Virus record (IMG/VR): IMGVR_UViG_3300023174_000087
Location: 1-64,000 of that record
Source: a virus
Length of the DNA stretch: 64,000 nucleotides
Strand: one strand, 5' to 3'
Within the stretch, counting starts at the first letter, position 1. Every line of letters starts with the position of its first letter. The position numbers were made by a program, and so were the translations under genes. Below, one piece after another: positions 3,767-59,200 of the stretch. Under the pieces are notes generated by a model, which was not told the DNA's origin, did no database searches, and was given only the letters and a program-made list of their open reading frames with translations.

Positions 3767-3911
3767 TAAGAACCTCGATTAGATGTTTAGTAGCATAGAT
3801 TTGTCCCTCTATATCTACCACATGGATAGAAGCAGGGTTTTCTTCAAGGTCTTGTTCAAGACTTATTAGGTGTAGGTTTATATATTCTTTGAATGTGTTT
3901 AGGTCCATATA

Positions 3912-4127: not shown

Positions 4128-4570
4128 TAGTCAAAATACCCTTCTGCCCATAGTCCTTGTAAGAAACTAGATACTTCATCTAGCCCCTTAGCAATACCTG
4201 AATTACCCAATTGCTCAGAAGCAATGTTTACATTAGCAATCATCATGTTTAAATCAGATAGTTCATAGCCTAGCATTATCCTACCTCAATTCCTGCATAT
4301 TTAGCAATAGTGTTTAGTGTAATATGGATATGGCAGTCACAATCTGTTCCCCCCATATTTTCTTCAAACTCAAGGTGAGAGAAGTTGCTTTCATATATTT
4401 CATTGATTAGATCATTTATAGTATTTATTGTTTGGGTCATGTATTAATTATCGCATGAACTGGGGAAAAAAGCAAGCCTTCATAAAGTTATCCACAAGAA
4501 ATGTCATGTGATTTACATCACAGGTGACGTCCCGCATTTTTATGCACTGCATTGCATATTTATTTACTTG

Positions 4571-4644
4571 CGATCCGTACGGGACTTGAACCCGTGACCT
4601 CTACCGTGACAGGGTAGCGAACTAACCAACTATTCTAACGGACC
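4571..4644 (-). tRNA. tRNA-Asp(GTC)
   Basis: canonical cloverleaf: GGTCCGT/ACGGATC acceptor, CTACC-CTGTCAC-GGTAG anticodon arm, GGTTCAAGTCC T-arm; CCA not encoded. Confidence 0.95.
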
Positions 4645-4647
4645 ATG

Positions 4648-4675
4648 TGAGCAGTTTTTATTCATGCTCAGGAAT
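4648..4675 (-). ncRNA. repeated pseudoknot-like RNA motif, copy 1
   Basis: ATTC-CTGAGCAT-GAAT-AAAAAC-TGCTCA. Confidence 0.6.
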
Positions 4676-4691
4676 CTTTATTCAGTTGTTA

Positions 4692-5714
4692 TTATGCGAG
4701 AGACATTACGCCTTGCACAACTTTTAGTAAGCGATTTTTTTCTGCGTTGATAGCAGGGTCAAATCCACTCGCACTTGCAAGAATAGACTCGTTAGAACCA
4801 CCACGAGCAGAACGATACCAGTCAAGGCGCTCAGTTAGTGCATTGAACGCACCCCAAGCATTGCCAGCAATCATTCCATTGAATTCACCAGTGTAAATAT
4901 CATTGATTACATCAACTTTATTTTCCCACTTTTTGAAAGCACCCTTAGCATCTTTTTCTGGCTTAGGATAAGCAGCAAGAATGATTTTGTTGAAATCAAT
5001 CGCATTGACTTCTTTTTCAATCATTGCCTTAGCCATAGTATCAAATTCGTCCATGTAAGCATTAGCAAGACCAAGAGTCTCACGAGCAATTTGCACCTTG
5101 CCATTAGCAGTTTGTGTATGACGAATTTTGAATGATTGCTTGATGCCCTTGTTCTTCTTGCGACCAACGCCACCAAGAGCAAGGTTTAGAGTATTAGCGC
5201 ACACAACACGAACGGGTGTTATGCTTGCTTGAATAGCGATTGAGCCATCGTGTGATGTATTGATGAGCAAATAAGTTTTTACCTTATCAGATACACCATT
5301 AGGGTCAAGAATTGTTTCACGCTCAAGAGCAAGAGCGCCAAATACTACACGCCCACCCTTGATTGAGCCAGCAGTCTCCCAACGACCTCCGCCGTCTAGG
5401 ATATTATCACCAAATGAAAATAAATCTTCATTCTGCAATACATGGTAGCGCTCACCAACTACGCCAAGAATATCGGTTTGTGTATTGTCGGTAGGGTTTG
5501 TTCGCAATACATATTGATAGTTTTTGTCGCTTGTTAGATGTGATGGGGTTTCCAAATCTTCAAGACGAACATTCCAACCATTGAGACTTGCAGCCTCTAA
5601 CATTTCTGCGGTTGTTTTTTCTTCTGTGAATACGGTTCCCAATCCATGCCAAGCAGGTTCACGGAAAGATGCAAAAGATGTTTTTCCGTTTTGTATTTCT
5701 AGGTCATGTGCCAT
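4692..5714 (-). CDS. DUF932 / TIGR03299-type phage-plasmid protein
   Basis: MAH...PAWHGLG, LGVVGERY..LQN, ETAGSIKGGRVVF, LLINTSHDGS, TPVRVVCANTL, IRHT motifs. Confidence 0.85.
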   Translation of the reverse strand: MAHDLEIQNGKTSFASFREPAWHGLGTVFTEEKTTAEMLEAASLNGWNVRLEDLETPSHLTSDKNYQYVLRTNPTDNTQTDILGVVGERYHVLQNEDLFSFGDNILDGGGRWETAGSIKGGRVVFGALALERETILDPNGVSDKVKTYLLINTSHDGSIAIQASITPVRVVCANTLNLALGGVGRKKNKGIKQSFKIRHTQTANGKVQIARETLGLANAYMDEFDTMAKAMIEKEVNAIDFNKIILAAYPKPEKDAKGAFKKWENKVDVINDIYTGEFNGMIAGNAWGAFNALTERLDWYRSARGGSNESILASASGFDPAINAEKNRLLKVVQGVMSLA

Positions 5715-5897
5715 GAGTTATTTTTTCCTTTTCTGTTTGTTGATATAGATAACTATACACTACCCAGCCGACAAATGCAAATCGGTATAGTTAAACATGG
5801 TATAAATTGGACATTTTGATCATGTGACTAAAATAACATTCGTAAACACGGCGTGTCAATTTGACAAAGTTATCCACAGGCGGGACGTCAAAATTTT

Positions 5898-5926
5898 TGA
5901 GCCTTTTTAATTCATGCTCAGGAATT
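5898..5926 (-). ncRNA. repeated pseudoknot-like RNA motif, copy 2
   Basis: AATTC-CTGAGCAT-GAATT-AAAAAG-GCTCA. Confidence 0.55.
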
Positions 5927-5982
5927 TTCACTACCATGTATATGGAACCAATATCCATATGTATGGTTCTTGTGAAATATAT

Positions 5983-6012
5983 TAAGCAGTTTACGTAGAC
6001 ATGCTCAGGTCC
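5983..6012 (-). ncRNA. repeated pseudoknot-like RNA motif, copy 3
   Basis: GGAC-CTGAGCAT-GTCT-ACGTAAAC-TGCTTA. Confidence 0.55.
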
Positions 6013-6030
6013 TTTATTAGTAGCCCCCTA

Positions 6031-6450
6031 CTAAATATCTACTCTGTCAACACTGGATGACAAGTAAGTTACACCTTGCGGTTCTGATACTGAATCAAAA
6101 TCAATATCATGAATTAAATTAATTGCTGATTCTTCATCTCTTGCATTAACTGTAATTGAATACATGACTGTAACTTCAACTTCGAATTCTTTTGTTAATT
6201 CAAAGCCCATAATTTCAGCAATTTCTTCTGCTTCTGTTTCATTAATTGAACCATGCTCAAGTGCATTGAGGGTCCATTCTTGCATTGATTCAACCATACG
6301 GTTTTTGTCTGCAGAATCTGCATATGAGCGCTGGGTTACCTTTTGAATGTGCTCTTCTAGTTCTGCAACACGCAATGTTGTTTTGGCTAAAGAATCACGA
6401 AGAAAGTCTTCTGTTGCATTTATAATTGTTGGGTATGTCTCTTGGTCCAT
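6031..6450 (-). CDS. hypothetical acidic protein
   Basis: 139-aa ORF with AGAAAGAGG RBS and its own promoter. Confidence 0.75.
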   Translation of the reverse strand: MDQETYPTIINATEDFLRDSLAKTTLRVAELEEHIQKVTQRSYADSADKNRMVESMQEWTLNALEHGSINETEAEEIAEIMGFELTKEFEVEVTVMYSITVNARDEESAINLIHDIDFDSVSEPQGVTYLSSSVDRVDI

Positions 6451-6565
6451 GGGGGCCTCTTTCTGTTAGTTGTAATATATTCAATTGTACTGTTGGGCAC
6501 TGACAAATAGGGCCATACCCCTAGGGGATCCTTGCTAACCATAGCGTCAAACGCAAGGGGTAAGG

Positions 6566-6594
6566 CTGAGCAGTTTAGCGACATACTCAGGTCG
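6566..6594 (-). ncRNA. repeated pseudoknot-like RNA motif, copy 4
   Basis: CGAC-CTGAGTAT-GTCG-CTAAAC-TGCTCAG. Confidence 0.6.
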
Positions 6595-6627
6595 TTTTAG
6601 GAGAGGCTCTGAACCCCTTACCCTAAA

Positions 6628-7050
6628 TTATAGGTAGCGAGCCACCGCATTGTATGTAGAAGTATTTACAACTTCCTCATCTGTCATTTTGAGAATACGA
6701 ATTGCGTTAGTCATTTCGTCTTTCATCTCACGATAAGTGTGAGAGTGAATTACCTCAAAATCTTTTTCAGGTTCTGTTGGGAAGTTTCCTTCTTTTACTG
6801 TAATGTCAAAATCAACATTGAGGTTATTGTTCCAAGAGCGATAGTTTGTTCGTAGGTTTTCAGCCTTTGAGAAGTTAGCAATAGCCCACTCACCAATTTG
6901 CTTTTTCCAAGCCTCATAAGTAAGTTTGTATTGTGCTTCTTTTGCTTCTTGTGTTGCGTAGTCCATCTCTAACTTTGCTAGTGATGTTTCTAGTCCTGCG
7001 ATTACTCGTTGAGTAGGGATTTTTACTGAGATTGCTTTGCCTCTTGCCAT
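6628..7050 (-). CDS. hypothetical phage protein
   Basis: 140-aa ORF with purine-rich RBS. Confidence 0.75.
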   Translation of the reverse strand: MARGKAISVKIPTQRVIAGLETSLAKLEMDYATQEAKEAQYKLTYEAWKKQIGEWAIANFSKAENLRTNYRSWNNNLNVDFDITVKEGNFPTEPEKDFEVIHSHTYREMKDEMTNAIRILKMTDEEVVNTSTYNAVARYL

Positions 7051-7097
7051 TTGTATTTCTCTTTTCTGTTTGTGGGTTATTTTTTAGGGGGTTTGTT

Positions 7098-7125
7098 TGA
7101 GCAGTTTTACATCTTGCTCAGGATA
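7098..7125 (-). ncRNA. repeated pseudoknot-like RNA motif, copy 5
   Basis: TATC-CTGAGCAA-GATG-TAAAAC-TGCTCA. Confidence 0.6.
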
Positions 7126-7141: not shown

Positions 7142-7306
7142 TTACTTAGATGTCCAAGTTGTGTAACGAATTGTTCCATCAACATTGAGTTTTACACGAA
7201 CATTTCCATTTGCTTGTGGAGTGATTTCCTGAATTGTTCCTGTAACCTTTGACTTCTGTGTTGTGTAGAGGTCGCCTACCTTGTATGTGTTTGTTGCTAC
7301 TGACAT
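7142..7306 (-). CDS. small SH3/KOW-like beta protein (longer in-frame start at 7420 also possible)
   Basis: AAGGAG RBS before ATG 7306; YKVGD...GTIQEI...VRVKL pattern. Confidence 0.6.
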   Translation of the reverse strand: MSVATNTYKVGDLYTTQKSKVTGTIQEITPQANGNVRVKLNVDGTIRYTTWTSK

Positions 7307-25839: not shown

Positions 25840-26910
25840 ATGGCAGTTAGACAACAGCAACGCAGAGGTACCGCAGCACAGTGGACATCAGCAAACCCAA
25901 TTCTTTCAGCAGCCGAAATTGGTTATGAAACAGATACAAATAAATTTAAGATTGGTGATGGAACCAATCGTTGGTCAACTCTAAGTTATTTTGTTGATCT
26001 TGATACAATGATTGCTGGTGCACCAGGACTTCTAAACTCTCTTGACGAAATTGCAGCCGCAATTAATGATGATCCAGCATTCTTTACAACAATTGCATCA
26101 TCACTTTCTTCAAAAGCACCACTTGCTTCCCCAACTTTTACAGGTACCGTTTCAGGTATTACAAAGTCAATGGTTGGACTAGGATCAGTAGATAATACTG
26201 CAGATTCAGCAAAGCCAGTATCTACAGCACAGGCAACAGCAATTGCAACAGCAAAGTCAGAAGCAGTATCAACTGCCTCATCTGATGCAACTACAAAGGC
26301 TAATAATGCTAAATCAGGTGCAGAGACAACAGCAGCAACTGCTCTTGCTTCACACGAATCAGACACAACAAATATTCACGGCATTGCAGACACATCTGCT
26401 TTGGCTACAAAAACATATGCAGACAATGCAGCATCTACTGCAGTTGCAGCCGTTGTAAATTCAGCGCCAGAAGCGCTTAATACACTAAAAGAACTTGCAG
26501 ATGCACTGACTGCAGACGAATCAACAGCAGCATCACTTGCTACTCTTGTTGGTACAAAAGCACCTTCTGCAAATCCAACCTTTACTGGAACAGTACAAGG
26601 TATCACAAAATCTATGGTAGGTCTAGGAAATGTTGATAACACATCTGATACCAATAAGCCAATATCATCAGCAACTCAGACAGCGCTTGATGCCAAACTT
26701 GCTTCTGCAACTGCAGCATCAACATACGAAACAATTTCAAATGTAGCACTTAAGGCGCCATTGGCATCTCCAGCACTTACTGGTACACCAACATCTCCAA
26801 CTGCATCAGTTGGAACTAATACAACACAAGTTGCCACAACAGCATTTGTTAAAGCAGCAATTGAGAATATTGCTTCACTAGACTTAGTACTTGATGGCGG
26901 TGGAGTATAA
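25840..26910 (+). CDS. tail fibre protein with Mtd-N-like N-terminal domain
   Basis: QQRRGTAAQWTSANPIL..EIGYETDT.KFKIGDG; VGLGNVDNTSD..KP repeats. Confidence 0.8.
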   Translation: MAVRQQQRRGTAAQWTSANPILSAAEIGYETDTNKFKIGDGTNRWSTLSYFVDLDTMIAGAPGLLNSLDEIAAAINDDPAFFTTIASSLSSKAPLASPTFTGTVSGITKSMVGLGSVDNTADSAKPVSTAQATAIATAKSEAVSTASSDATTKANNAKSGAETTAATALASHESDTTNIHGIADTSALATKTYADNAASTAVAAVVNSAPEALNTLKELADALTADESTAASLATLVGTKAPSANPTFTGTVQGITKSMVGLGNVDNTSDTNKPISSATQTALDAKLASATAASTYETISNVALKAPLASPALTGTPTSPTASVGTNTTQVATTAFVKAAIENIASLDLVLDGGGV

Positions 26911-26971: not shown

Positions 26972-28963
26972 ATGACAACAAGAATGCAACAGCGTAGAGG
27001 AACCTCTGCACAATGGACTTCAGCAGATCCAATTTTAGCAAATGGTGAAATTGGAGTAGAAACAGACACTAACCAGTTTAAACTTGGAGATGGTGTTAAC
27101 GTATGGTCAGATCTCTCCTACTTTAAAAATCTTGATGACCTTGCTGGTTCTCTTGATGACTACGTATTATTAAGCACAAAGGGGCAAGCAAATGGAGTTG
27201 CAACTCTAGACTCTAATGCTCAAATTCCGCTTTCACAATTAGCAAATCTTATATCTTCAGCACCATTAGCACTAGACACATTAAACGAACTTGCAGCAGC
27301 ACTGGGAAATGATGCAAATTTTGCTACAACAATTTTAGCATCAGTTGCAACAAAACTTCCTACTAGTACATTTACAACACATGCAGCGACCACAACAAAT
27401 GTTCATGGAATTGCAGATACTTCAGTTCTAGCAACTGCTACAACGGTAGCAACCGCTAAAGCAGAAGCAATTTCAGCAGCAGCAACTTATACATCAACTG
27501 CAAAATCAGAAGCAATTTCTGCAGCAGCAACCGATGCAACAAGCAAAGCATCAAGTGCAGCAGCAGAAGCAGCAACTGATGCAACAACTAAAGCAGCAAC
27601 TGCAAAGTCAGAAGCAATAGCAGCAGCCGCTTCTGCAGCAGATACAAAAGTTTCAACACATAACACAGCAACAACAAACGTACATGGCATTACAGACACA
27701 GCAGCACTAGCGACTAAAACATATGCTGACTCAGCAGTATCAACTGCAGTTTCAGGACTTACAAAGTCTTCTGTAGGACTTTCAAACGTAGATAATACCT
27801 CTGACGCCAACAAGCCAGTTTCTACTGCAACTACAACAGCACTTGCACTTAAGGCTAATCTTGCCAGTCCAACTTTCACAGGAACAGTTTCTGGAATTAC
27901 AGCATCAATGGTAGGCCTTGGAAATGTCAATAACACAGCAGACACTGCAAAGCCTGTTTCAACAGCACAGCAAACAGCACTTGATGCTAAGTTGGCACTT
28001 TCTGGCGGAACAATGACAGGAGCACTTACACTATCAGCAGATCCTACATCAGCACTTCATGCGGTTACTAAACAGTATGCAGACGGACTTGCTGCTGGAA
28101 TTAACTTTCACCAAGCAGTAGTTGCAGCATCAGCAGGCAACCTTGCTGGTGTTTACAATAATGGAACAAATGGTCTTGGTGCAACAATTACAGCATCAGC
28201 AAATGGTGCTATTGGAACAATTGATGGTGCAACAGTTTCTGTTGGTTCTAGAATTCTTCTTCGTGCACAAACAGATGCAACTCAAAACGGTATTTACACA
28301 GTAACTGACCTTGGAAGCGGATCTACAAAGTGGGTTGTAACTCGTGCAACAGATGCAGATAATAATCCAGCAGGTGAACTTGCAACTGGTGACTTCTGTT
28401 TCGTAACAGCAGGCTCAACAAATGCTGCTAAGGGTTATATCCTAAGCACAACAGGAACAATTACAATTGGAACTACAAATGTTAACTACACACAGTTTAA
28501 TGCTTCTGAAGCCGTAACTGCTGGTACAAATATTACAAAGTCTGGTTCAACAATTTCTGTTGCAGATGCACCAACATTTGCTGGGCTTGTAACAGCCTCA
28601 GCAGCAGGTGTTGCATTCTCAGACGGTACACAAACAAAGGAAGGCGTAGTCTCACGTACACCAATTATTCAAAAGACAGCAGCCTACACACTATCAGCAC
28701 TTACAGAAAGAGACTCATTGATTGAAGTATCTTCTGCATCAGCAGTTACCTTAACAATCCCAACAAATGCAACACTAGCCTTGCCAGTAGGAACATCTAT
28801 AGATATTCTTCAGACTTCTACTGGACAAGTAACAATTGCAGGAGCAGCAGGAGTTACAGTTAACGCTACACCAGGTCTAAAACTACGCACACAGTGGTCT
28901 GGAGCAACTCTTTTTAAGAGAGCAACAGATACTTGGGTAGTTTACGGCGACCTATCAGCATAA
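26972..28963 (+). CDS. tail fibre protein with Mtd-N-like N-terminus and 'GDLxA' C-terminal domain
   Basis: same N-terminal motif as 25840; Ala/Thr-rich shaft; QNGIY.VT...RATDAD. Confidence 0.8.
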   Translation: MTTRMQQRRGTSAQWTSADPILANGEIGVETDTNQFKLGDGVNVWSDLSYFKNLDDLAGSLDDYVLLSTKGQANGVATLDSNAQIPLSQLANLISSAPLALDTLNELAAALGNDANFATTILASVATKLPTSTFTTHAATTTNVHGIADTSVLATATTVATAKAEAISAAATYTSTAKSEAISAAATDATSKASSAAAEAATDATTKAATAKSEAIAAAASAADTKVSTHNTATTNVHGITDTAALATKTYADSAVSTAVSGLTKSSVGLSNVDNTSDANKPVSTATTTALALKANLASPTFTGTVSGITASMVGLGNVNNTADTAKPVSTAQQTALDAKLALSGGTMTGALTLSADPTSALHAVTKQYADGLAAGINFHQAVVAASAGNLAGVYNNGTNGLGATITASANGAIGTIDGATVSVGSRILLRAQTDATQNGIYTVTDLGSGSTKWVVTRATDADNNPAGELATGDFCFVTAGSTNAAKGYILSTTGTITIGTTNVNYTQFNASEAVTAGTNITKSGSTISVADAPTFAGLVTASAAGVAFSDGTQTKEGVVSRTPIIQKTAAYTLSALTERDSLIEVSSASAVTLTIPTNATLALPVGTSIDILQTSTGQVTIAGAAGVTVNATPGLKLRTQWSGATLFKRATDTWVVYGDLSA

Positions 28964-33458: not shown

Positions 33459-36400
33459 ATGTCTAATTCATCAAACCTTTATGCTGACAAAGTTTTTTCA
33501 GAACACCCAATGGTTCTTTGGGCTTTAGACGACAATATTGATTATATTTCTTTAATATCAGAAAATAAACGAAGCATTTCTTCTTGGTCTAAAACTGCAG
33601 GAACAGTATCAGAGGTTGATTCTGGATTAAGCCCGTTTCCAAATAGCACAACTTCAAAGGTTACCCTAGCAAATCCAGAAGATGAGTTTAGCATAGCAAC
33701 ATTTAAAAGTGATGACATTATTAATTTTACATTAATGAATCAAGAATTAAAAACATTTTCTATTGGTGCCTATATAAATATTAATACTTCCGCTTTTGCT
33801 GGTTTTGAGTTAGGTTATGAATATATTGATTCAACAACAGCACAAACAATACAAAACTTAAAATATTTTGCAACATCTGTTACAGATTCTTGGATGTTTA
33901 TATCTGAAACATTTGATTTACCAGATGATAATACAACAATGAAGTTAGTAATTAAAGCAGTGTACTATTCTATTCCAGAGTTGACTGATCCATACATATT
34001 CTTAGTAAATGGAATAAGTCTTGGGCAATGGTCAGAAGAGTTTAACTCAACATCACTTGGTGTTACCGTTGGTGCCCCAATTTCTGGTGTTTTGAGAAAT
34101 GCAACATTTAAAGGCGTTCAGTCTTTATCTTATGGTTTAAACCAGGATCCTGCGTATTATGTTGTATCTAATAATTCACTATATGCAAAAAATACTGGAA
34201 TTCCGATGGTGTATGGAGCAACAGGACTTACCAGACTTTCTCCAAATACAAACATGCCATCATTGTTAATACCAGGTAATGGGTTTTTACATGAATATGG
34301 AAAGTTTAAAGAGTATACATTTGAAATGTGGCTTAGACTAACAAATGATTCATCAGAGCCTAAAAAAATATTTGGTCCAGTTGAAACAAGTGATGGACTT
34401 TGGGTAGATGGCCCATTTTTAATTTTAAAAATTAATGATTACATTGCAAGTCACTATGTTGGCGAATGGGGAAAGCCAATGCTAGTTGATATAAGGTACA
34501 GTTATAATGGAGCAAATCTTGTTATAAATGGTGAGCAAGTTGCAGAAATTTTGTTTAATGCAAAAGACTTGTCATTTTTATTAGGTCAAGAATATACAAT
34601 TGATTGGCTTGCTTTTTGGTCTTATGATGATGTATATCCAGTAGAAGTAGATGCTGTTGCAATATACTCTTATCAGGTTCCCAACATTGTTGCAAAAAGA
34701 AGATATGTTTACGGACAGGGTGTTGATTTTCCAGAAAACATTAATACAGCCTATAGTGGGTCTTCCGTTTTTATTGACTATCAATATGCAAATTATGCAA
34801 GTAATTACATATATCCAGATCTGGGCAGATGGAATCAAGGAGTTCTTGATAATATATCTATTGATAATAATGAACTATCAGCACCAAGTTATTCTTTGCC
34901 AGAGTTGGTAATTGAATCAGGTCGTACTTCTGATTTGACTGATTTAGTTTTTTCATCAAACTTACAATTAGAAAGCAACAATTTCTTTACATTTAAACCA
35001 AATAATGCTTGGAATAAAAATGGGCACCTAGTTTTTAATAATTTTAATTTTTTACAAGAAGAAATTAAAGCATTTTATTCAGTTATTAAATTTACTAATT
35101 TACCACAACAGGATGAAGTCATTATACAAATTAATTCTGCAACAAACTCTAATTATTTTTCAGTTATTGCAAATGGATCAAAAATAAAATATAATCTATT
35201 TTATAATGGAAGCCTAACAACAATACATGAAAACTCTGGAGTGCAGGTTGGAGAGGTTTTTCCTGTGGGCATTAATATCGATGATTTTACAAAACATTTT
35301 GGAGAAAACCTATATTCATTTTTTGGAAATAGGTCAGATCTAAAATTTTATGTTGGTGGAAATAAAGATTTTTCTAAAAGTTTTCACGGAAAGATTTATT
35401 CTGTAGGTTTTTGCAATTCATCAAATCTTTCTGAGGTATCTGAACTTTTTAATGCAAAAGGTTGTGTAATTGAACATGAAGATATTTTTGATCTATACAC
35501 TTCACAAATTGATGCAGACAGTGGAGAGTACACTGGAAGTAGTGAAGGCTTTTGGCAGTTTTTTATGGATGGAGGAGACCCATATTCTTATTCTAGTTAT
35601 AGATTAAAAAATCACACAGCAAGTTATACTTTAATTGTTAAAGAATATTTTGATAAATTTTATTTTGATATTGCAATAAGTGGATCATGGAAAGACTATT
35701 TACCACTTACTTATTTGGCAAAATATGTAACAGATACAACTGGAAGCAAATACTATGACTTAGATTTTATTCAGTTTAATGTTGATTACCCAGCACCATC
35801 TACTTTTTTAGAAAAAGAATCTACACCAATCGTATGGAATTATGGAAACCCAAGATCAATTACAACAGATGGTGTAACAACAGTTATCCCTTCATTAATG
35901 GAAGAATACTCTACTCCAATTCAAAAGAAATACTCCGCTTTAGACAATCATCTTTATACTGGATATAATGACTATACAGATCTACAAAATAAATCATTTA
36001 AAGACTATATTTATGATACTTCTAGTTCTTATGTAAGGTCGTATGTAAATTTTGAATATGTTTCTTCTGGGATCAACACTAATGATAATTATTTTATTAC
36101 AACAGAACTTCCGCCAAAAGATGGAGTAGTTTCACCAGGCTCCAATTGGTTGTCTACAAAATATGAAGTTGTTGATAATATGATTATCTATCCACCATCA
36201 GAAGATATCAACTCTTTGGCCATGGTAACAAAACTAGTTTTTAAAATTGATGGAATTTTTACCCATGGAGTAAGATTAAAAACTTTGGAGTATGCTTCTC
36301 AATCATTTAATGATTCTTCTCCAAACCCAGTTGGTACAAAGTTTGGAATTCCAATTTATCCATATAGGAAGAGCGGATACTATTATGATTATAAAGAAAA

Positions 36401-37187
36401 GAATCCTTTTTCTATTTATAAAAAAAGTTCTCCATATTTGTTTTTAACAAAGAATAGTGGCATTGAGTTACGTGGTAATTATGATCCAAACATTGACCGT
36501 GGCCTGTCAATACCAATTAATCAGTCTGTAGCAGAGTCTTTTAAGATAATGGCAATGCAAACTGCAATAAAATATGACAAGGACTATTTCCCATTTAGCC
36601 CAATGCAAATATTTGAGATAGAGTCTAAAGATCAAAATATTCAATTTTTTATGGTTGCAAATAGTCCTGACGGTAAAAGAGGAAAATTATATGCGGTAGA
36701 TTCTACAACTGGAAAACTTGAAGATGGAATTTCCTTTTATATAAATGGTAAAATTGTAAAAGATCCAGTAATAACAATTAAAGAATGGACTTTCCTTGGA
36801 ATTGGCTTCTCAAGCATTCTTGATTTTAAAAATACTGTAGGATCTATTAGGCTCACTGGCCCCATGATGTTTAATGTTTTATCTTATTATCAAACAACAA
36901 GTCTTCAGGAAGTTCAGCAAACATCTCTTAGACCTTGGTTTAAAGTTAAATATGCTGGAGTTTTGCCCCTTGATTGGAATTTTTGGAATCCCGCATATAT
37001 GTGGCAAGGAGTTTTGGTTATCTCAACAAAGAGTTATTATGGGGTTGAGCCAGACGTAATCTATAAAACTTATACGGGAACAAATAAAACAATTATTGAT
37101 ACTGATGATATTTTGACCCTTGGAAAATATGAGTACAACATATATCAGGATATATCTTGGCAACAAACAACCGTAATACCTGTTTAA
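33459..37187 (+). CDS. large virion structural protein with LamG/ConA-like segment
   Basis: 1242 aa; P...WALDD, YTFEMWLR, VDAVAIYSY; located upstream of the head genes. Confidence 0.55.
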   Translation: MSNSSNLYADKVFSEHPMVLWALDDNIDYISLISENKRSISSWSKTAGTVSEVDSGLSPFPNSTTSKVTLANPEDEFSIATFKSDDIINFTLMNQELKTFSIGAYININTSAFAGFELGYEYIDSTTAQTIQNLKYFATSVTDSWMFISETFDLPDDNTTMKLVIKAVYYSIPELTDPYIFLVNGISLGQWSEEFNSTSLGVTVGAPISGVLRNATFKGVQSLSYGLNQDPAYYVVSNNSLYAKNTGIPMVYGATGLTRLSPNTNMPSLLIPGNGFLHEYGKFKEYTFEMWLRLTNDSSEPKKIFGPVETSDGLWVDGPFLILKINDYIASHYVGEWGKPMLVDIRYSYNGANLVINGEQVAEILFNAKDLSFLLGQEYTIDWLAFWSYDDVYPVEVDAVAIYSYQVPNIVAKRRYVYGQGVDFPENINTAYSGSSVFIDYQYANYASNYIYPDLGRWNQGVLDNISIDNNELSAPSYSLPELVIESGRTSDLTDLVFSSNLQLESNNFFTFKPNNAWNKNGHLVFNNFNFLQEEIKAFYSVIKFTNLPQQDEVIIQINSATNSNYFSVIANGSKIKYNLFYNGSLTTIHENSGVQVGEVFPVGINIDDFTKHFGENLYSFFGNRSDLKFYVGGNKDFSKSFHGKIYSVGFCNSSNLSEVSELFNAKGCVIEHEDIFDLYTSQIDADSGEYTGSSEGFWQFFMDGGDPYSYSSYRLKNHTASYTLIVKEYFDKFYFDIAISGSWKDYLPLTYLAKYVTDTTGSKYYDLDFIQFNVDYPAPSTFLEKESTPIVWNYGNPRSITTDGVTTVIPSLMEEYSTPIQKKYSALDNHLYTGYNDYTDLQNKSFKDYIYDTSSSYVRSYVNFEYVSSGINTNDNYFITTELPPKDGVVSPGSNWLSTKYEVVDNMIIYPPSEDINSLAMVTKLVFKIDGIFTHGVRLKTLEYASQSFNDSSPNPVGTKFGIPIYPYRKSGYYYDYKEKNPFSIYKKSSPYLFLTKNSGIELRGNYDPNIDRGLSIPINQSVAESFKIMAMQTAIKYDKDYFPFSPMQIFEIESKDQNIQFFMVANSPDGKRGKLYAVDSTTGKLEDGISFYINGKIVKDPVITIKEWTFLGIGFSSILDFKNTVGSIRLTGPMMFNVLSYYQTTSLQEVQQTSLRPWFKVKYAGVLPLDWNFWNPAYMWQGVLVISTKSYYGVEPDVIYKTYTGTNKTIIDTDDILTLGKYEYNIYQDISWQQTTVIPV

Positions 37188-45012: not shown

Positions 45013-45654
45013 ATGGCAGATTATACAAGAGGTTCGAGCAACAACATTATCGTTGGTGCTGCAGCACTTTTCACATATGATCTAGGTGTCTTATCAGATG
45101 CCGATCTTCCAGCATACGAAGCAGCAACATCATTTAAGGATTCCCTTACAAACGATGCTGACTACACAAATGTTGGATATACAAGCAATGGTCTTGAAAT
45201 TCAGTTCCAACCAGACTTCGGTGAAGTTAAGGTTGATCAGGTTCTTGACGTTGCTAAGTTGTACAAGCAGGGAATGCAGGTCTCATTGAAGACAACATTC
45301 GCTGAGTCAACACTTGAGAACCTATTGTTCTCACTTGCAGGAAAAGACGCAGATCTAAACGCTTACAATACAGCAGGCGCAGGATCTAAGGCACTTAATC
45401 TTTCAGCAGGAGACATTGGAGAATGTCCAGTTGAAAAGGGACTAGTTGCAGTTGGACCAGGTACAGGTGACTGTGCTGCAGGATCAACCAAGGAGCGTAT
45501 TTATGTTGCATACCGTGCACTTTCAATTGAAAATGTTACAGTATCAGCAAAGCGTGACGAAGCAACAATGTTTGAAGTGAACTTCCGCCTTCTTCCAAAT
45601 GATAATGCATCATATGGTAAGATCGTAGATCGTACAATTCCAGCAGGCGCATAA
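45013..45654 (+). CDS. major tail (tube) protein
   Basis: NIIVGAA, VGYTSNG, V.VDQ, T.FAE.TLENL, F..LP; followed by a strong terminator. Confidence 0.85.
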   Translation: MADYTRGSSNNIIVGAAALFTYDLGVLSDADLPAYEAATSFKDSLTNDADYTNVGYTSNGLEIQFQPDFGEVKVDQVLDVAKLYKQGMQVSLKTTFAESTLENLLFSLAGKDADLNAYNTAGAGSKALNLSAGDIGECPVEKGLVAVGPGTGDCAAGSTKERIYVAYRALSIENVTVSAKRDEATMFEVNFRLLPNDNASYGKIVDRTIPAGA

Positions 45655-45670
45655 TATAACTTAACATGAG

Positions 45671-45703
45671 AAGCCCAACCCTTCGGGGTTGGGTTTTTCT
45701 TTT
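45671..45703 (+). terminator. intrinsic terminator with cUUCGg tetraloop
   Basis: AGCCCAACCC-TTCG-GGGTTGGGTT-TTTCTTTT. Confidence 0.9.
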
Positions 45704-56224: not shown

Positions 56225-59200
56225 TGTTTGATAACAAAGAACTTCAAGATCACTTGGAACAATCATCAACAGTAAAAACCCAATCTGCTGTAATTGCAGA
56301 GTGGAACATGAATATTCCCACAAACATTTTAAAAATCGGAAACTATAGATATAGACCAACAGTTACAGATTCAAAATACTCACTATTACCTAACACATTT
56401 GATCCAAATGATGCTGGAAATTATTACACAGATGCTACTGATGCAGATATCACCATTGACGGCGGTATTGAAGATTCAGGGCTTCCCATATCTTTAACCA
56501 CCAAAAAAGATAAATTAAAAATGTTATATTCATTAGAGGATTGTTTTAAACAATTTAGACCTAGATCTGGAATTAATAAGGCTAAGTATTTTAGTGGATT
56601 ATTCTTGCACCATGCCAATATGCAAATGGCTGATAGACCAAGATATTATATGTCAGATAGGCAAGACATTTTTAAATATTGGACATCCTTTAGAACTGAG
56701 TCTGGCAGCGAATATGGTATTGCAAATAAAACATCTAACGGACAAAGAATAATTGAAGACTCTGTTCCATTTGTTGTTTACAAAGAAACAATTCCAGCAA
56801 ACAGAATTGTTGTGAAGATGCAAACTCATATTGGAAGCGTTGATCTTGGAAATATTGTTTATAATTCAAAATCAATACCAGACCCACTATACGGAGATGC
56901 AAATAAATCAACCCCACTTAAATGGAAGATACAGGTGCTCAAAGGTTCTAACTGGGTAGATGGTTTATCTTTTGCTGTAGGAGAACTTAGAGCAAACGGA
57001 AAACCTATAATTGGTTCAGATGGATATGTAGAACTATCGTATGGTCTAAAGATTCCACAAAAATATAAAAGCAATTTTATTTTTGCAGAAAGGCTTTCTT
57101 CAGAAACACTTTTGCCAGAAACAAATATAGATGGATATGCCTATTTAATTGTTTCAAATAGCAATACTCGTGGTACATTTCATATTTGGAATAAAACAAT
57201 GTATGAAACTTTTTCTCCAGAATATACTTGGCAATTAGCAGAAGATGTTGTTGATAGTTTTACAAACTTTGTCACAGACCTTACATCCCCAGACTATTAT
57301 AATTCAACCACTGATAATTCATTAAAGTACCGTGAGTTTGAATATATTCGTGGTGTTCGAGTTGTTGTTGATTCAATGACAAAAGCAGATGCAACATTTG
57401 ATTTGATTGAAATATCTCCAAGACTTTCAGTCAATTTAACAGATAAAGTTTTACAGTATTCTGTAAATAAAAGTGCATCAGATCTTGGAGTAAGCGGTTT
57501 ACCAGTTGGACAATTACTTGCTTCAACTGGAAGCATAAAACTTTTTGACTACGATGATTCATTTAATCAAAATAACTCTAATAGTATAATTAAAAACTAT
57601 GTCTCAAGGCACATACAGTTTAAGTTATACGAAGTGATTGTAGATATAAATGGATACGATTATTATGTTCCATTAAAAACTTTGTATTCTGAAGACTTTC
57701 CAAAAATATCAAATGCTGATAGAACTGTAGAACTTAGTTTAAGGGATATGTTTTTTTATCTTGAGTCTATTACTGCTCCACAAATTTTAATGACAAATGT
57801 ATCTATAAGTTCTGCAGTCTCCCTTCTTCTTGACTATGTAGGTTTTTCAAATTATTCTTTTAAAAGGGTAAACGGAGAATCTGAAGTTACAATTCCTTAT
57901 TTTTTTATTCCACCCGATATGACAGTTGCACAAGTATTACAAGACCTTGCTGTATCAACACAAACAGCAATGTTCTTTGATGAATATAATAATTTTATAA
58001 TGATGAGTAAAAATTATACTATGCCTTTAGAGTCAGAGAGATCAACAAGCATAACACTTTATGGAACTAAAGACTTTGAAGATCAAGGGGTTCGTGAAAA
58101 TTACCCATTAAATAATAAACTAACAAATATTATAGAATTAAGCAATCAAGACTCAAAAGTATATAATGATGGATCAATCAATTATACTTCAAGATATATT
58201 CAAAGATCTGTTGGTTCCATAAAACAGGCGGGATTAATTGATAATGAAAAAACATGGATATATAAGCCAGTATTGCTATGGGAAGTTACGGGAACAGATA
58301 ATACAAAATCCGTAAATGGTCAAGTTGGAAATCAGTCAACATATGTTCTTGGTGCTATTGCATTAAATTCTGATCTATCAAATTTGGTGCCATATGTTTC
58401 AAACAATAAAATTTTAAATAATACTATCGACTTTGGTGAGTCAGTGTATTGGATGACAAGATATAATGGGTATTTTTATGCAAATGGAGAAGTTATTAAA
58501 TTTGATGCAGTTGAGTATAATGTTGCTGGTGTTGGAAATGTTTGGATTTCGGATGTACAGGAGTATCAGACTTATTTTTCAAAAATACCATTTAACGGAA
58601 AAATTTATCCAACAGGTCTTGTAAGAATATACTCAGAGCCAAATTATCAAGAAGTAAATGGTGTTTTAAAATTTAAAAATGGTGACGTTGCAAAACATGG
58701 ACGAGGACAGTTTGGAACATCTATTGTAAATCATTATGCTGGACTATCTACACATTGGACAGACAGTGAAAATCTTCGTGGTTGCACCATGACTGGAGAT
58801 GTTCTATTTAGTTCTATTGCAACAGAACTACCACAACCAGAAACAGGGCTATCAGTTGCAGCAGCAGGTCTTTCTACTTTTATAAATAGTGGCACACCAC
58901 CTGAAACTGAACAGCCAACAAGTAATTCTATTTCTCAAAAAGCAACAAGAAATGGAATCATTAAAAACTTTTTGTCTTCAACATATATTGATCAATCAGT
59001 AACGAATAGACTGCAAAGCACACAATCTGGATCAATTCAATCATCAGCATTTGTTATGAACGGTCCAGCACTTACAACCTCTCCAAGACCAAAAGACTTT
59101 ATTTCTTATGTATACAAACCATTAGAAGATAAATTTAAGCATTTTGGAACAAGGGTTAGAATTATTGGAAAGATAGAAAACAATATGGATCGTGGTCAAA

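Follow-up and report, generated by a model that had tools for sequence, protein, structure and literature searches.

Coremin, or xrRNA-C, is a pseudoknot of beny-, cucumo- and other RNA viruses, alongside which a Watson-Crick variant, namely xrRNA-WCC, has been described (Dilweg et al., 2019, PMC6546385; 2023, PMC10520033; 2023, PMC10321173). Its fold, which has great mechanical stability, stalls Xrn1 as well as ribosomes, hp2 being needed for resistance to Xrn1, and several of its elements are indispensable, i.e., (i) a C-G pair must close the loop, (ii) L1 is a single essential nucleotide, and (iii) the AAACU of the spacer is essential, with adenines modelled in the minor groove of stem 1; in the xrRNA-WCC of SPlV5, stem 2 is made of GAG and CUC(A) (PMC6546385, PMC10520033, PMC10321173). 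Judging from sequence, these pseudoknots of eukaryotic RNA viruses appear to be the closest known element to a motif found in five copies in a lake phage and shared, as scans of sequence collections indicate, by hundreds of phages and mobile elements across many bacterial phyla.

In the window, i.e., the whole stretch of 64,000 nt of viral DNA analysed here, all five repeats can be read off the minus strand, among the following features:

tRNA-Asp(GUC): 4570..4644, minus strand, directly downstream of copy 1
Pseudoknot copy 1: 4648..4675, minus strand, AUUC-CUGAGCAU-GAAU-AAAAAC-UGCUCA, 44.6 bits, E 1.9e-9
DUF932 gene, 340 aa: 4692..5714, minus strand, upstream of copy 1
Candidate sigma-70-like promoter: 5830..5859, minus strand, TTGACA-18-TATTTT, with TG; consensus match only
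Pseudoknot copy 2: 5898..5926, minus strand, (A)AUUC-CUGAGCAU-GAAU(U)-AAAAA-GGCUCA, 43.5 bits
Pseudoknot copy 3: 5983..6012, minus strand, GGAC-CUGAGCAU-GUCU-ACGUAAAC-UGCUUA, 30.4 bits, E 7e-6
Gene of 139 aa, no assigned function: 6031..6450, minus strand, followed by tandem copies 3 and 2
Pseudoknot copy 4: 6567..6594, minus strand, CGAC-CUGAGUAU-GUCG-CUAAAC-UGCUCA, 44.6 bits
Gene of 140 aa, no assigned function: 6628..7050, minus strand, followed by copy 4; 16 homologous loci
Pseudoknot copy 5: 7098..7125, minus strand, UAUC-CUGAGCAA-GAUG-UAAAAC-UGCUCA, 43.2 bits
Gene of 54 aa, no assigned function: 7142..7306, minus strand, followed by copy 5; 19 homologous loci

The initial annotation had placed five copies on this strand, all of which are present, copy 4 starting at 6567 and not at 6566; the pairings it quoted for the first stem (P1), said to change in sequence yet stay paired, are correct in the five copies, and the complementarity it saw between the loop and a downstream TGCTCA is borne out, copy 2 (GGCUCA) lacking one terminal pair of the second stem (P2). 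In copies 3 and 4, P2 does retain G.U pairs after the C>T changes; copy 3, whose linker reaches 8 nt, has G.U pairs in both P1 and P2, and copy 4 has a U.G pair in P2. Four copies do lie within about 40 nt of a stop codon, as had been proposed: copy 1, ending 3 nt before the tRNA-Asp, starts 16 nt past the double stop of the DUF932 gene, while copies 3, 4, and 5 start 18, 33, and 16 nt past the stops of the 139-, 140-, and 54-aa genes, respectively. The second member of the tandem pair, copy 2, lies 104 nt from the preceding stop and represents an AAAAA-GGCUCA variant with orthologues in related phages. Copy 5 can be regarded as intercistronic since the next start codon is 47 nt further on and the gap holds no promoter. 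As for the neighbouring genes, DUF932 is the family most often preceding the motif (30 loci) and the 139-aa gene with its tandem copies is an arrangement kept in relatives (11 loci); searches of the 54-, 139-, and 140-aa genes against Pfam and PHROGs gave no clue to function, and megablast of the region against cultured phages returned no match.

This recurrence is well above chance, the pattern of the initial annotation giving five matches in the window where 0.30 were expected, every one of them on the minus strand, and none of 100 shuffles giving five. A covariance model built from homologues likewise recovers exactly these five in the window (E 1.8e-9 to 7.2e-6), the next match standing at E 0.73, and pattern scans of the whole 115,201-bp genome of the lake phage returned no copy beyond them.

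The consensus, P1(4 bp)-C-UGAGCA-W-P1'-NNAAAC-UGCUCA, totals 28-30 nt. Stem 1 comprises 4 bp of free sequence apart from the C-G pair closing the loop, which occurs in 23 of the 25 copies found outside the fetching pattern, and loop 1 consists of one C (25/25 of the same copies). In stem 2, the hairpin-loop UGAGCA pairs with the downstream UGCUCA over 6 bp, of which the four inner pairs are always kept and the two outer ones often open. A single base, U or A, forms the junction after the loop strand of stem 2, this last loop base being U in most copies, A in fewer, and C or G in only a few. In the 6-nt loop NNAAAC, the AAA is conserved at 99-100% and the C at 93%, the next base being U in 137 of 150 copies; the position of this loop would allow its adenines to dock in the minor groove of stem 1.

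Both stems covary. For P1, 108 unique IMG/VR copies were considered, fetched by a pattern that left the P1 pairs unconstrained: pairing reaches 99% in the two pairs beside the C-G, where all four Watson-Crick types occur, falls to 81% in the outermost pair and is random further out. For P2, 150 distinct copies contain seven compensated double changes and no broken interior pair, with pair 12-32 occurring as GC in 141, AU in 5 and GU in 4 copies, pair 14-30 as GC in 149 and AU in 1, and pair 15-29 as CG in 136, UG in 13 and UA in 1. Scored for covariation, P2 reaches 0.38, whereas shuffles give 0.11 and slid partners no more than 0.10. Single-side changes in P2 amount to 17 G.U against 0 A.C, which assigns the pairing to the sense strand. 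Of the homologous copies, 179 of 185 are sense to the local coding strand and none of the 35 multi-copy loci mixes strands, in line with the claimed orientation along transcription. With more than 250 homologues consistent with the structure, an H-type RNA pseudoknot, on the sense strand and within mRNA, is strongly supported by sequence comparison.

The alternative of a DNA site is suggested by the fact that TGAGCA-N11-TGCTCA makes up an inverted repeat, and a precedent exists in the stoperators of cluster A mycobacteriophages, which are asymmetric, co-oriented with transcription and near stop codons. Such an orientation-dependent operator, or else a single-stranded DNA hairpin, is nonetheless very unlikely: a sequence-reading protein would not tolerate a stem 1 covarying with all four pair types, the G.U to A.C imbalance implies pairing in one strand, symmetric double changes occur in single copies next to consensus copies of the same genome (loci L057 and L079), and the minimal distance of 5 nt from the stop codon (see below) has no reason at DNA level. 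The preference of the initial annotation for RNA over a DNA operator is thus upheld.

Set against coremin, the likeness extends to most parts of the fold. The hp1 of coremin has 3-5 bp, with a free or compensable stem and an obligatory C-G closing pair, and the 4-bp stem 1 of the phage motif behaves likewise; its L1 is a single non-substitutable nucleotide, a C in BNYVV as in the phages. The coremin loop, YGAD or YGNNAD, and the phage CUGAGCAU have in common a first Y, an A in the last place but one and seldom a C in the last, whereas the 8-nt phage loop begins CU-G, with a U as second base where coremin has G. The coremin spacer, UUAAACUAC, in which A16-A20 are essential, is matched in part: NNAAACU, i.e., two tolerant bases and then AAACU, recurs in the phage motif, which continues with GCUCA instead of AC. 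The canonical antiparallel stem 2 and one-nucleotide L1 of xrRNA-WCC are both present in the phage motif, and stem 2 of SPlV5 even has the same letters as the phage stem 2 core. Both coremin and the phage motif are located at the start of 3' UTRs or between genes, sometimes in several copies per genome. Differences are equally clear: the phage stem 2 has 6 bp, four of them always kept, against three non-canonical or canonical pairs in coremin and WCC; hp2 is missing, the 8 nt after the phage motif being G-poor and unstructured; and, unlike coremin, the phage motif is carried by DNA phages and mobile elements, in bacterial hosts devoid of Xrn1.

Regarding its distribution, an exact-pattern scan of IMG/VR found at least 119 contigs with the motif. 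A scan of genome collections gave 71 further P1-paired copies in genomes of many phyla; 48 of its 119 matches had no stem 1 pairing and were set aside, their number being equal to a rough estimate of the chance rate. Cultured carriers comprise Mycobacterium phage Labelle, with the motif at 56436-56473, Erwinia phage Berlingot, cyanophage S-RIM4 (Synechococcus), and Paracoccus phage ParMal1. A wobble-tolerant hairpin scan gave 463 real matches against 331 in reversed sequence, a background too high, for which reason it was replaced by Hamming-limited scans. A seeming second loop class, 'NTGAGCAG', was discarded as the opposite strand of the same copies. The initial annotation recognised no named family, and no match of Rfam 15 (including preQ1-I, SAM-II, pistol, and hammerhead) overlapped any copy, be it at gathering score or E<=10, the searches returning two tRNAs and chance matches only; the searchable literature held nothing on this element, including in combination with coremin, RNase J or DUF932.

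The motif appears, from its placement, to be anchored to the upstream gene. The spacing from stop codon to motif never falls below 5 nt, peaks at 5-6 nt (54/217), with all three stop codons in use, and is broad, with a maximum above 100 nt; in intergenic regions of 120-400 nt, some 20 nt separate the motif from the stop, and 130-200 nt separate it from the next start. The genes upstream fall into 106 clusters. Many copies are intercistronic with no space for a promoter, about a quarter, in co-directional gene arrays, having the next start no more than 28 nt downstream, and four copies are followed by a convergent gene. Another recurrent neighbour is a tRNA: 17 copies, i.e., copy 1 and those of 16 other loci, stand 3-13 nt upstream of the 5' end of a tRNA (Asp, Glu, Leu, Val or Met), and none just downstream of one.

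A position 5-6 nt after a stop, together with a compact H-type fold, calls to mind recoding signals, namely stop-codon read-through or -1 frameshifting as stimulated by luteovirus and retrovirus pseudoknots 5-9 nt after the recoding site. Luteovirus-type frameshifting pseudoknots (beet western yellows virus, 28 nt) are alike in size and H-type topology, in the very short L1 in the deep groove of stem 2, in the A-rich loop across stem 1 and in the few nucleotides separating them from the codon in the ribosomal A site, and coremin elements can stimulate -1 frameshifting in vitro. Recoding was nevertheless rejected as extremely unlikely on account of the short frames past the stops (median 8 codons in the 0 and -1 frames, 4 in +1), neither overlapping nor extended frames being seen; besides, the motif, in several copies per genome, follows all three stops, of many unrelated genes, and a double stop in copy 1, the spacing is broad, and by eye no slippery heptamer is common to the 9 nt before the stops. 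Other candidates, i.e., boxA/nut, tRNA D-arm mimicry, CRISPR-repeat mimicry, type III antitoxin repeats and attC, were dropped as their defining order, spacing or tandem layout is absent.

The reading tentatively preferred here, at somewhat under an even chance and by sequence context and analogy, is that of a mechanical roadblock that would leave transcription unterminated and protect the upstream mRNA at its 3' end. At 5 nt or more past the stop, the pseudoknot would lie just beyond the reach of the terminating ribosome and remain folded, forming a compact roadblock that would serve as the 3' boundary mark of the upstream cistron. Since genes or tRNAs follow within 3-30 nt, RNA polymerase is proposed to pass through it. 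A cut downstream, by RNase P at an adjoining tRNA or by another endonuclease in the G-poor tail, would then leave the pseudoknot to halt 3'-to-5' exonucleases, and the upstream early mRNA would be stabilised; the pseudoknot would as such be equivalent to a terminator hairpin without termination. A position anchored to the upstream stop fits poorly with a riboswitch-like role.

Comparison with gene-end hairpins bears directly on this roadblock. T7 early RNase III sites, REP and terminator hairpins are, like the phage motif, repeated between early genes, on the sense strand and just past gene ends, but they are long or GC-rich plain hairpins with no cross-phyla sequence conservation, whereas the phage motif is a 28-nt pseudoknot with near-invariant loops. 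In Streptomyces phage Navo, where a degenerate pattern search gave only chance-level matches relative to a backwards-read control, the DUF932 homologue and its upstream neighbour are each followed, at the equivalent position, by hairpin-plus-T-tract terminators, the place of which is taken by the motif in the lake phage. This substitution could indicate a partial terminator or pause, in which stem 2 would fold behind RNA polymerase and, with an 8-nt G-poor hybrid, release some polymerases, setting the ratio of upstream to downstream expression. The 8 nt 3' of the motif contain G at 2-14% only (2-9% in the first seven), a tract close in length to an RNA-DNA hybrid and without conserved hairpin, and a terminator scan found none at the five sites or in the minus-strand spacers holding them. 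Such partial termination is still quite improbable: there is no U-tract, positions +1 and +2 being mostly C, the phage uses a canonical terminator elsewhere (45668-45699), and tRNAs or genes needing co-transcription lie within 3-30 nt. Efficient termination is unlikely for the latter reason, the more so as no space is left for a promoter. Across homologues, a hairpin plus T-run within 60 nt is found for 7 of 257 copies, i.e., at random level, and GC-rich hairpins for 47 of 257, many of which are tRNA stems.

The same fold could act in the other direction, as a bacterial xrRNA blocking 5'-to-3' movers (RNase J, 5'-end-tethered RNase E or post-termination ribosomes) and so shielding or insulating the downstream cistron or tRNA precursor. 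In coremin and xrRNA-WCC, the closest known relatives of the motif, Xrn1 halts at the base preceding hp1, and ribosomes are stalled as well; the quarter of copies close before a start in co-directional arrays and a minimal distance from the stop suggestive of a fold hard for ribosomes to melt also agree with it. This possibility, considered unlikely, has to contend with anchoring to the upstream stop instead of the downstream start, and with promoter-like sites between the motif and the next gene in long spacers. The promoter-like sites of the window are downstream of the motif; the candidate at 5830..5859 sits between copy 2 and the DUF932 gene, the primary transcript of which, if that promoter is used, would begin downstream of the pseudoknots. 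Furthermore, the motif stands before tRNAs, where RNase P would remove it, and in no case after them, where a block to 5' attack would be useful, and its carriers include an Erwinia phage, while enterobacteria are not known to have RNase J. By analogy, the idea of an exonuclease block, raised in the initial annotation, gains support from the likeness to coremin-type xrRNAs. The context, however, favours a role in guarding the 3' end of the upstream message over one in shielding the downstream RNA from RNase J. The analogy nonetheless also provides a point against 3'-end protection, coremin blocking a 5'-to-3' enzyme and not 3'-to-5' exonucleases, and requiring the hp2 absent from the phage motif. 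Protection of the 3' end does not account for the marked scarcity of G in the 8 nt that follow the motif, and compaction of the genome could be responsible in part for its proximity to tRNAs and stop codons.

Nor does a 3'-stabiliser obviously call for the extreme conservation of sequence seen between phyla, as ordinary hairpins suffice; such conservation may instead reflect a specific partner or chemistry. A recognition element, i.e., a binding site for a conserved protein or for a small ligand, or a tiny self-cleaving RNA would process or regulate the transcript at gene ends; the pattern is typical of aptamers and ribozymes, with a free stem 1 and L1, stem 2 and AAAC near-invariant across phyla, and the positions between cistrons and 3 nt before tRNAs are of a processing type. 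The preQ1-I riboswitch aptamer, of H-type and the smallest known riboswitch, is similar in size, in its covarying stem 1, in its conserved loop and in an A-rich tail ending in the 3' strand of stem 2. It differs in that the phage motif has no Rfam match, lies after genes and not in 5' leaders, a 3'-UTR location that misfits a riboswitch, has no Shine-Dalgarno in stem 2, and occurs in multiple copies per genome. Recognition or self-cleavage is therefore improbable: no co-occurring protein family was seen among the upstream clusters, no Rfam ribozyme or riboswitch family was matched, no natural ribozyme class is known to be as small as 28 nt, and the coremin experiments show that a fold alone can impose such strict sequence needs.

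In lake metatranscriptomes, relatives of these genes occur in four RNA runs. Three exact contigs of one run (X1) end near the motif, at 5 nt from copy 5, 13 nt from copy 3 and 14 nt from copy 2, which is a weak hint at most, as the contigs are assembled, of low depth and possibly from DNA carry-over; among the matches listed for the four runs, no contig spans a pseudoknot, and 5905-6011 has zero cover in all four.

At 28 nt and with covariation in both stems, the element ranks, from its sequence signature, among the smallest structured RNAs to be strongly supported, and is absent from Rfam and the searchable literature. The annotation of phage genomes would gain from the motif as a mark of true gene ends and strand, and it may provide a portable 28-nt part to tune mRNA stability across many bacteria; its cultured carriers make the proposals directly testable in Mycobacterium smegmatis, Erwinia, Synechococcus and Paracoccus. 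More broadly, it is conceivable, albeit doubtful, that the miniature fold of coremin xrRNAs also serves DNA phages and mobile elements in bacteria, perhaps in archaea too, as a protein-independent, universal 'stop sign' of about 28 nt for RNA-threading exonucleases and ribosomes, set 5-6 nt past stop codons and fixing mRNA ends without terminating transcription. Were such a roadblock to exonucleases or ribosomes true, it would account for the stabilisation of early phage messages in the absence of terminators, would bring bacteriophages into an xrRNA concept drawn from eukaryotic RNA viruses, and would constitute the first exoribonuclease-resistant RNA class described for prokaryotic systems.

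All five minus-strand copies of the motif claimed by the initial annotation are present: its pattern gives five matches in the window, all on the minus strand, against a chance expectation of 0.3, and none further across the virus genome of 115,201 bp, whose left 64 kb make up the window. Under a covariance model built from homologues of the motif, copies 1 to 5 score 30-45 bits (E 2e-9 to 7e-6), the next-best match having an E of 0.73. As such, the observation of a five-copy element is confirmed.

Copies 1 to 5 of the pseudoknot motif in the window
Copy 1: 4675-4648, minus strand, AUUC-CUGAGCAU-GAAU-AAAAAC-UGCUCA
Copy 2: 5926-5898, minus strand, AAUUC-CUGAGCAU-GAAUU-AAAAA-GGCUCA
Copy 3: 6012-5983, minus strand, GGAC-CUGAGCAU-GUCU-ACGUAAAC-UGCUUA
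Copy 4: 6594-6567, minus strand, CGAC-CUGAGUAU-GUCG-CUAAAC-UGCUCA
Copy 5: 7125-7098, minus strand, UAUC-CUGAGCAA-GAUG-UAAAAC-UGCUCA

As had been read from the sequence, four of the five copies start shortly after a stop codon, the measured spacing being 16-33 nt, and copy 1 adjoins tRNA-Asp, which begins 3 nt past its end; copy 2 is the second member of a tandem pair. The 56 nt separating tandem copies 3 and 2 (window 5927-5982, minus strand) hold two similar 12-mers, CCATACATATGG and CCATATACATGG, and the tandem order with variant tails (UGCUU-type, then GGCUCA-type) is also found in related phages (L026, L029 and L056). That the motif was not recognised as a named family is borne out, since zero Rfam families match it even with the threshold relaxed to E<=10, and a literature search found no paper on it.

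The pattern used to fetch copies for the stem-1 test constrains only the tail, the loop and its closing C-G, leaving the outer bases free. Among the matches listed, 108 unique IMG/VR copies have the two pairs adjoining the C-G 99% paired, with all four Watson-Crick types, and the fourth pair 81% paired, positions beyond being random, so that stem 1 comprises 4 bp. For stem 2, copies were gathered by a rule blind to loop-tail pairing, 150 distinct ones were aligned (alignment A1) and pairs were counted with the pseudoknot bracket string; all four inner pairs are never broken, namely GC141/AU5/GU4, AU150, GC149/AU1 and CG136/UG13/UA1 in the 150 copies, counts that exceed the number of independent events since the recurrent AAAAA-GGCUCA variant, as in copy 2, seems orthologous among relatives. 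The outer two pairs are frequently open. Compensated double changes occur at seven places in six loci (L008, L029, L057 with two copies, L058, L079 and L023), in copies differing in both stem-1 sequence and upstream gene, and a wider scan added L118, where CUGGGCAU faces UGCCCA. Single-side changes gave 17 G.U and no A.C, an asymmetry which argues against a DNA site and shows that the sense strand pairs, therefore RNA (formally also one DNA strand); with stem 1 covarying and stem 2 compensated, the proposal of an RNA pseudoknot instead of a DNA operator is upheld. In unconstrained copies, loop 1 (L1) is C in 25/25 and the closing pair is C-G in 23/25. The loop following stem 1 reads NNAAAC, with A at 99-100%. 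These alignments strongly support a predicted compact H-type pseudoknot with 4 bp in stem 1, an L1 of 1 nt, 6 bp in stem 2, a single junction base and an A-rich loop of 6 nt.

Relative to genes, 179 of 185 copies run in the sense of the local coding strand, bearing out the orientation with transcription first proposed, and mixed strands occur in none of the 35 multi-copy loci. Between stop codon and motif there is a sharp minimum distance of 5 nt, below which fall 3/217 copies, and the mode is 5-6 nt (54/217), all three stop codons being represented. Given the layout of the mRNA channel of the ribosome, a helix that lies 5-6 nt beyond an A-site codon sits just outside the ribosomal helicase; taken with this geometry, the 5-nt bound suggests that the terminating ribosome must not enter the fold. 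In long intergenic regions, the motif keeps close to the stop (~20 nt), the next start being 130-200 nt away, and it belongs to the upstream gene. A recoding signal was ruled out on the shortness of the frames past the stop; this reading and that of a DNA site, even taken together, keep only a very slight probability. Among ~180 unique copies, G falls to 2-14% over the 8 nt 3' of the motif (20% overall), and positions +1 and +2 are C-enriched, the tract mostly starting with C; such G-poor tracts (e.g., window 4640-4647 and 7090-7097) could reflect cleavage at this site, an effect of the RNA-DNA hybrid or selection against mispairing. Same-strand tRNAs (Asp, Glu, Leu, Val, Met) lie 3-13 nt downstream of 17 copies, and no copy was found just 3' of a tRNA. 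The genes preceding the motif form 106 clusters, the largest being DUF932 (30), then the three small genes of the window (19, 16 and 11); since the largest clusters are its four genes, this module of four genes is conserved, pseudoknots included, in related lake phages.

The exact pattern CCTGAGCATG-N6-16-AACTGCTCA occurs in at least 119 IMG/VR contigs (at least 129 instances) and at least 119 times in the genome collection. Among the genome matches listed, stem 1 is paired in 71 and unpaired in 48, the latter being, on a rough estimate, about chance level for 596 Gb. Paired matches span widely differing taxa, with many Candidatus Saccharibacteria, Anaerolineae, Nocardia, Segatella, Lachnospiraceae and Merdibacter, as well as several Proteobacteria and two Methanobrevibacter MAGs. 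Where nameable, their surroundings point to mobile DNA, with DUF932, an ArdC-like gene, a major head gene of Mu type and, on one complete chromosome of Saccharibacteria, a cluster for type IV secretion. The rumen Methanobrevibacter MAG contigs (L140 and L148) each have a well-formed copy, with a UGAC/GUCA stem and a linker of 7 nt, 5' of an ArdC-N/IrrE-like gene, and may represent either a mobile element of archaea or bacterial sequence that was mis-binned. Cultured carriers comprise Mycobacterium phage Labelle, a group of Erwinia amylovora phages, cyanophage S-RIM4 and Paracoccus phages, in each of which the motif lies directly 3' of an annotated CDS, in the same sense.

Partial termination at the motif is improbable. 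A hairpin with a T-run follows only 7/257 copies, the random level. The host polymerase is expected to use ordinary terminators, since a strong canonical intrinsic one (45668-45699, plus strand; 14-bp stem, TTCG loop, T-run) adjoins the end of a 213-aa late gene (45013-45654). Copy 5 and the gene that follows it have no promoter between them, and copy 1 adjoins a tRNA, so that polymerase must read through the motif. In Navo (L244), a 130-kb Streptomyces phage whose gene order resembles the left end of the lake phage, the homologue of DUF932 (52% identity) and its upstream neighbour are each followed, at the position of the lake phage's pseudoknots, by a hairpin-plus-T-tract terminator (3800-3850 and 5025-5065), with a promoter-like sequence after each. 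Spacers 3' of the pseudoknots in the window (5860-5885 and 4480-4545, minus strand) carry, beside sigma-70-like promoters, a recurring module in which GACGTC is accompanied by a perfect complement to the DnaA box (TGTGGATAA in CTGTGGATAACTTT / TTGTGGATAACTTT) and by a CRP-like palindrome (TGTGATGTAAATCACA). Relatives of these genes occur in four lake metatranscriptomes; exact contigs of one run end within 5-14 nt of three copies, with none extending across a copy, which is at most a hint, these being assembled contigs from which ends and strand are not readable.

Elsewhere in the window, a 1242-aa ORF (33459-37187, plus strand), with a class II ribonucleotide reductase and a portal gene on either side, has no Pfam match; it may be a divergent or intein-bearing terminase, since no large terminase gene was identified in the window. 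Two adjacent plus-strand proteins (25840-26910 and 26972-28963) each have at their start an Mtd_N domain (N-terminus of the major tropism determinant), a hint that they are fibre or receptor-binding proteins.

The motif is without an Rfam family. Among known classes, the coremin-type xrRNA, an Xrn1-stalling pseudoknot found in RNA viruses of eukaryotes, comes nearest, with defined differences. Compared feature by feature (PMC6546385, PMC10520033, PMC10321173), the two are alike in the C-G closing pair on the first hairpin (hp1), a pair that coremin needs, a stem open to compensation, a one-base, unchangeable L1, two tolerant bases followed by AAACU, essential in coremin, and adenines modelled in the minor groove of stem 1; in the Watson-Crick coremin that Sanxia picorna-like virus 5 carries, stem 2 likewise pairs GAG with CUC(A). 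The phage motif, however, has no G at loop position 2, different bases following AAACU, a longer stem 2 and no second hairpin (hp2), which Xrn1 resistance of coremin requires (PMC6546385, PMC10520033, PMC10321173). Judged from its sequence, it falls outside coremin as coremin is defined; by analogy, it may work like coremin-type pseudoknots, relatedness being possible. A specific partner or self-cleavage is unlikely: the main argument for specific ligand binding or catalysis, i.e., the near-invariant bases, is gone, as coremin experiments show that a fold alone can demand near-invariant loop bases (PMC6546385, PMC10520033, PMC10321173).

The motif is an RNA pseudoknot in mRNA, positioned with respect to the translation end of the upstream gene and passed by polymerase, and we infer by analogy that the fold would act as a mechanical roadblock. 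The reading we tentatively prefer, at somewhat less than even confidence, is protection of the 3' end of the upstream message after a downstream cut, without termination: RNase P cleavage at tRNA junctions would supply such a cut, transcription continuing, and the pseudoknot would then shield the upstream 3' end. This protection is favoured because the motif is anchored to the upstream stop, promoter-like sites lie 3' of it, the homologous phage Navo has terminators at the equivalent place and the tRNA association is one-sided. RNase R and PNPase depend on a 3' tail that is single-stranded over about 7 nt or longer; the 3-5 nt remaining after RNase P would be consistent with an inert end. A true xrRNA working in the opposite direction, shielding downstream RNA from RNase J, RNase E scanning or ribosomes, is possible at a distinctly lower probability than upstream protection. 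The proposed function is addressable in the cultured carrier phages.
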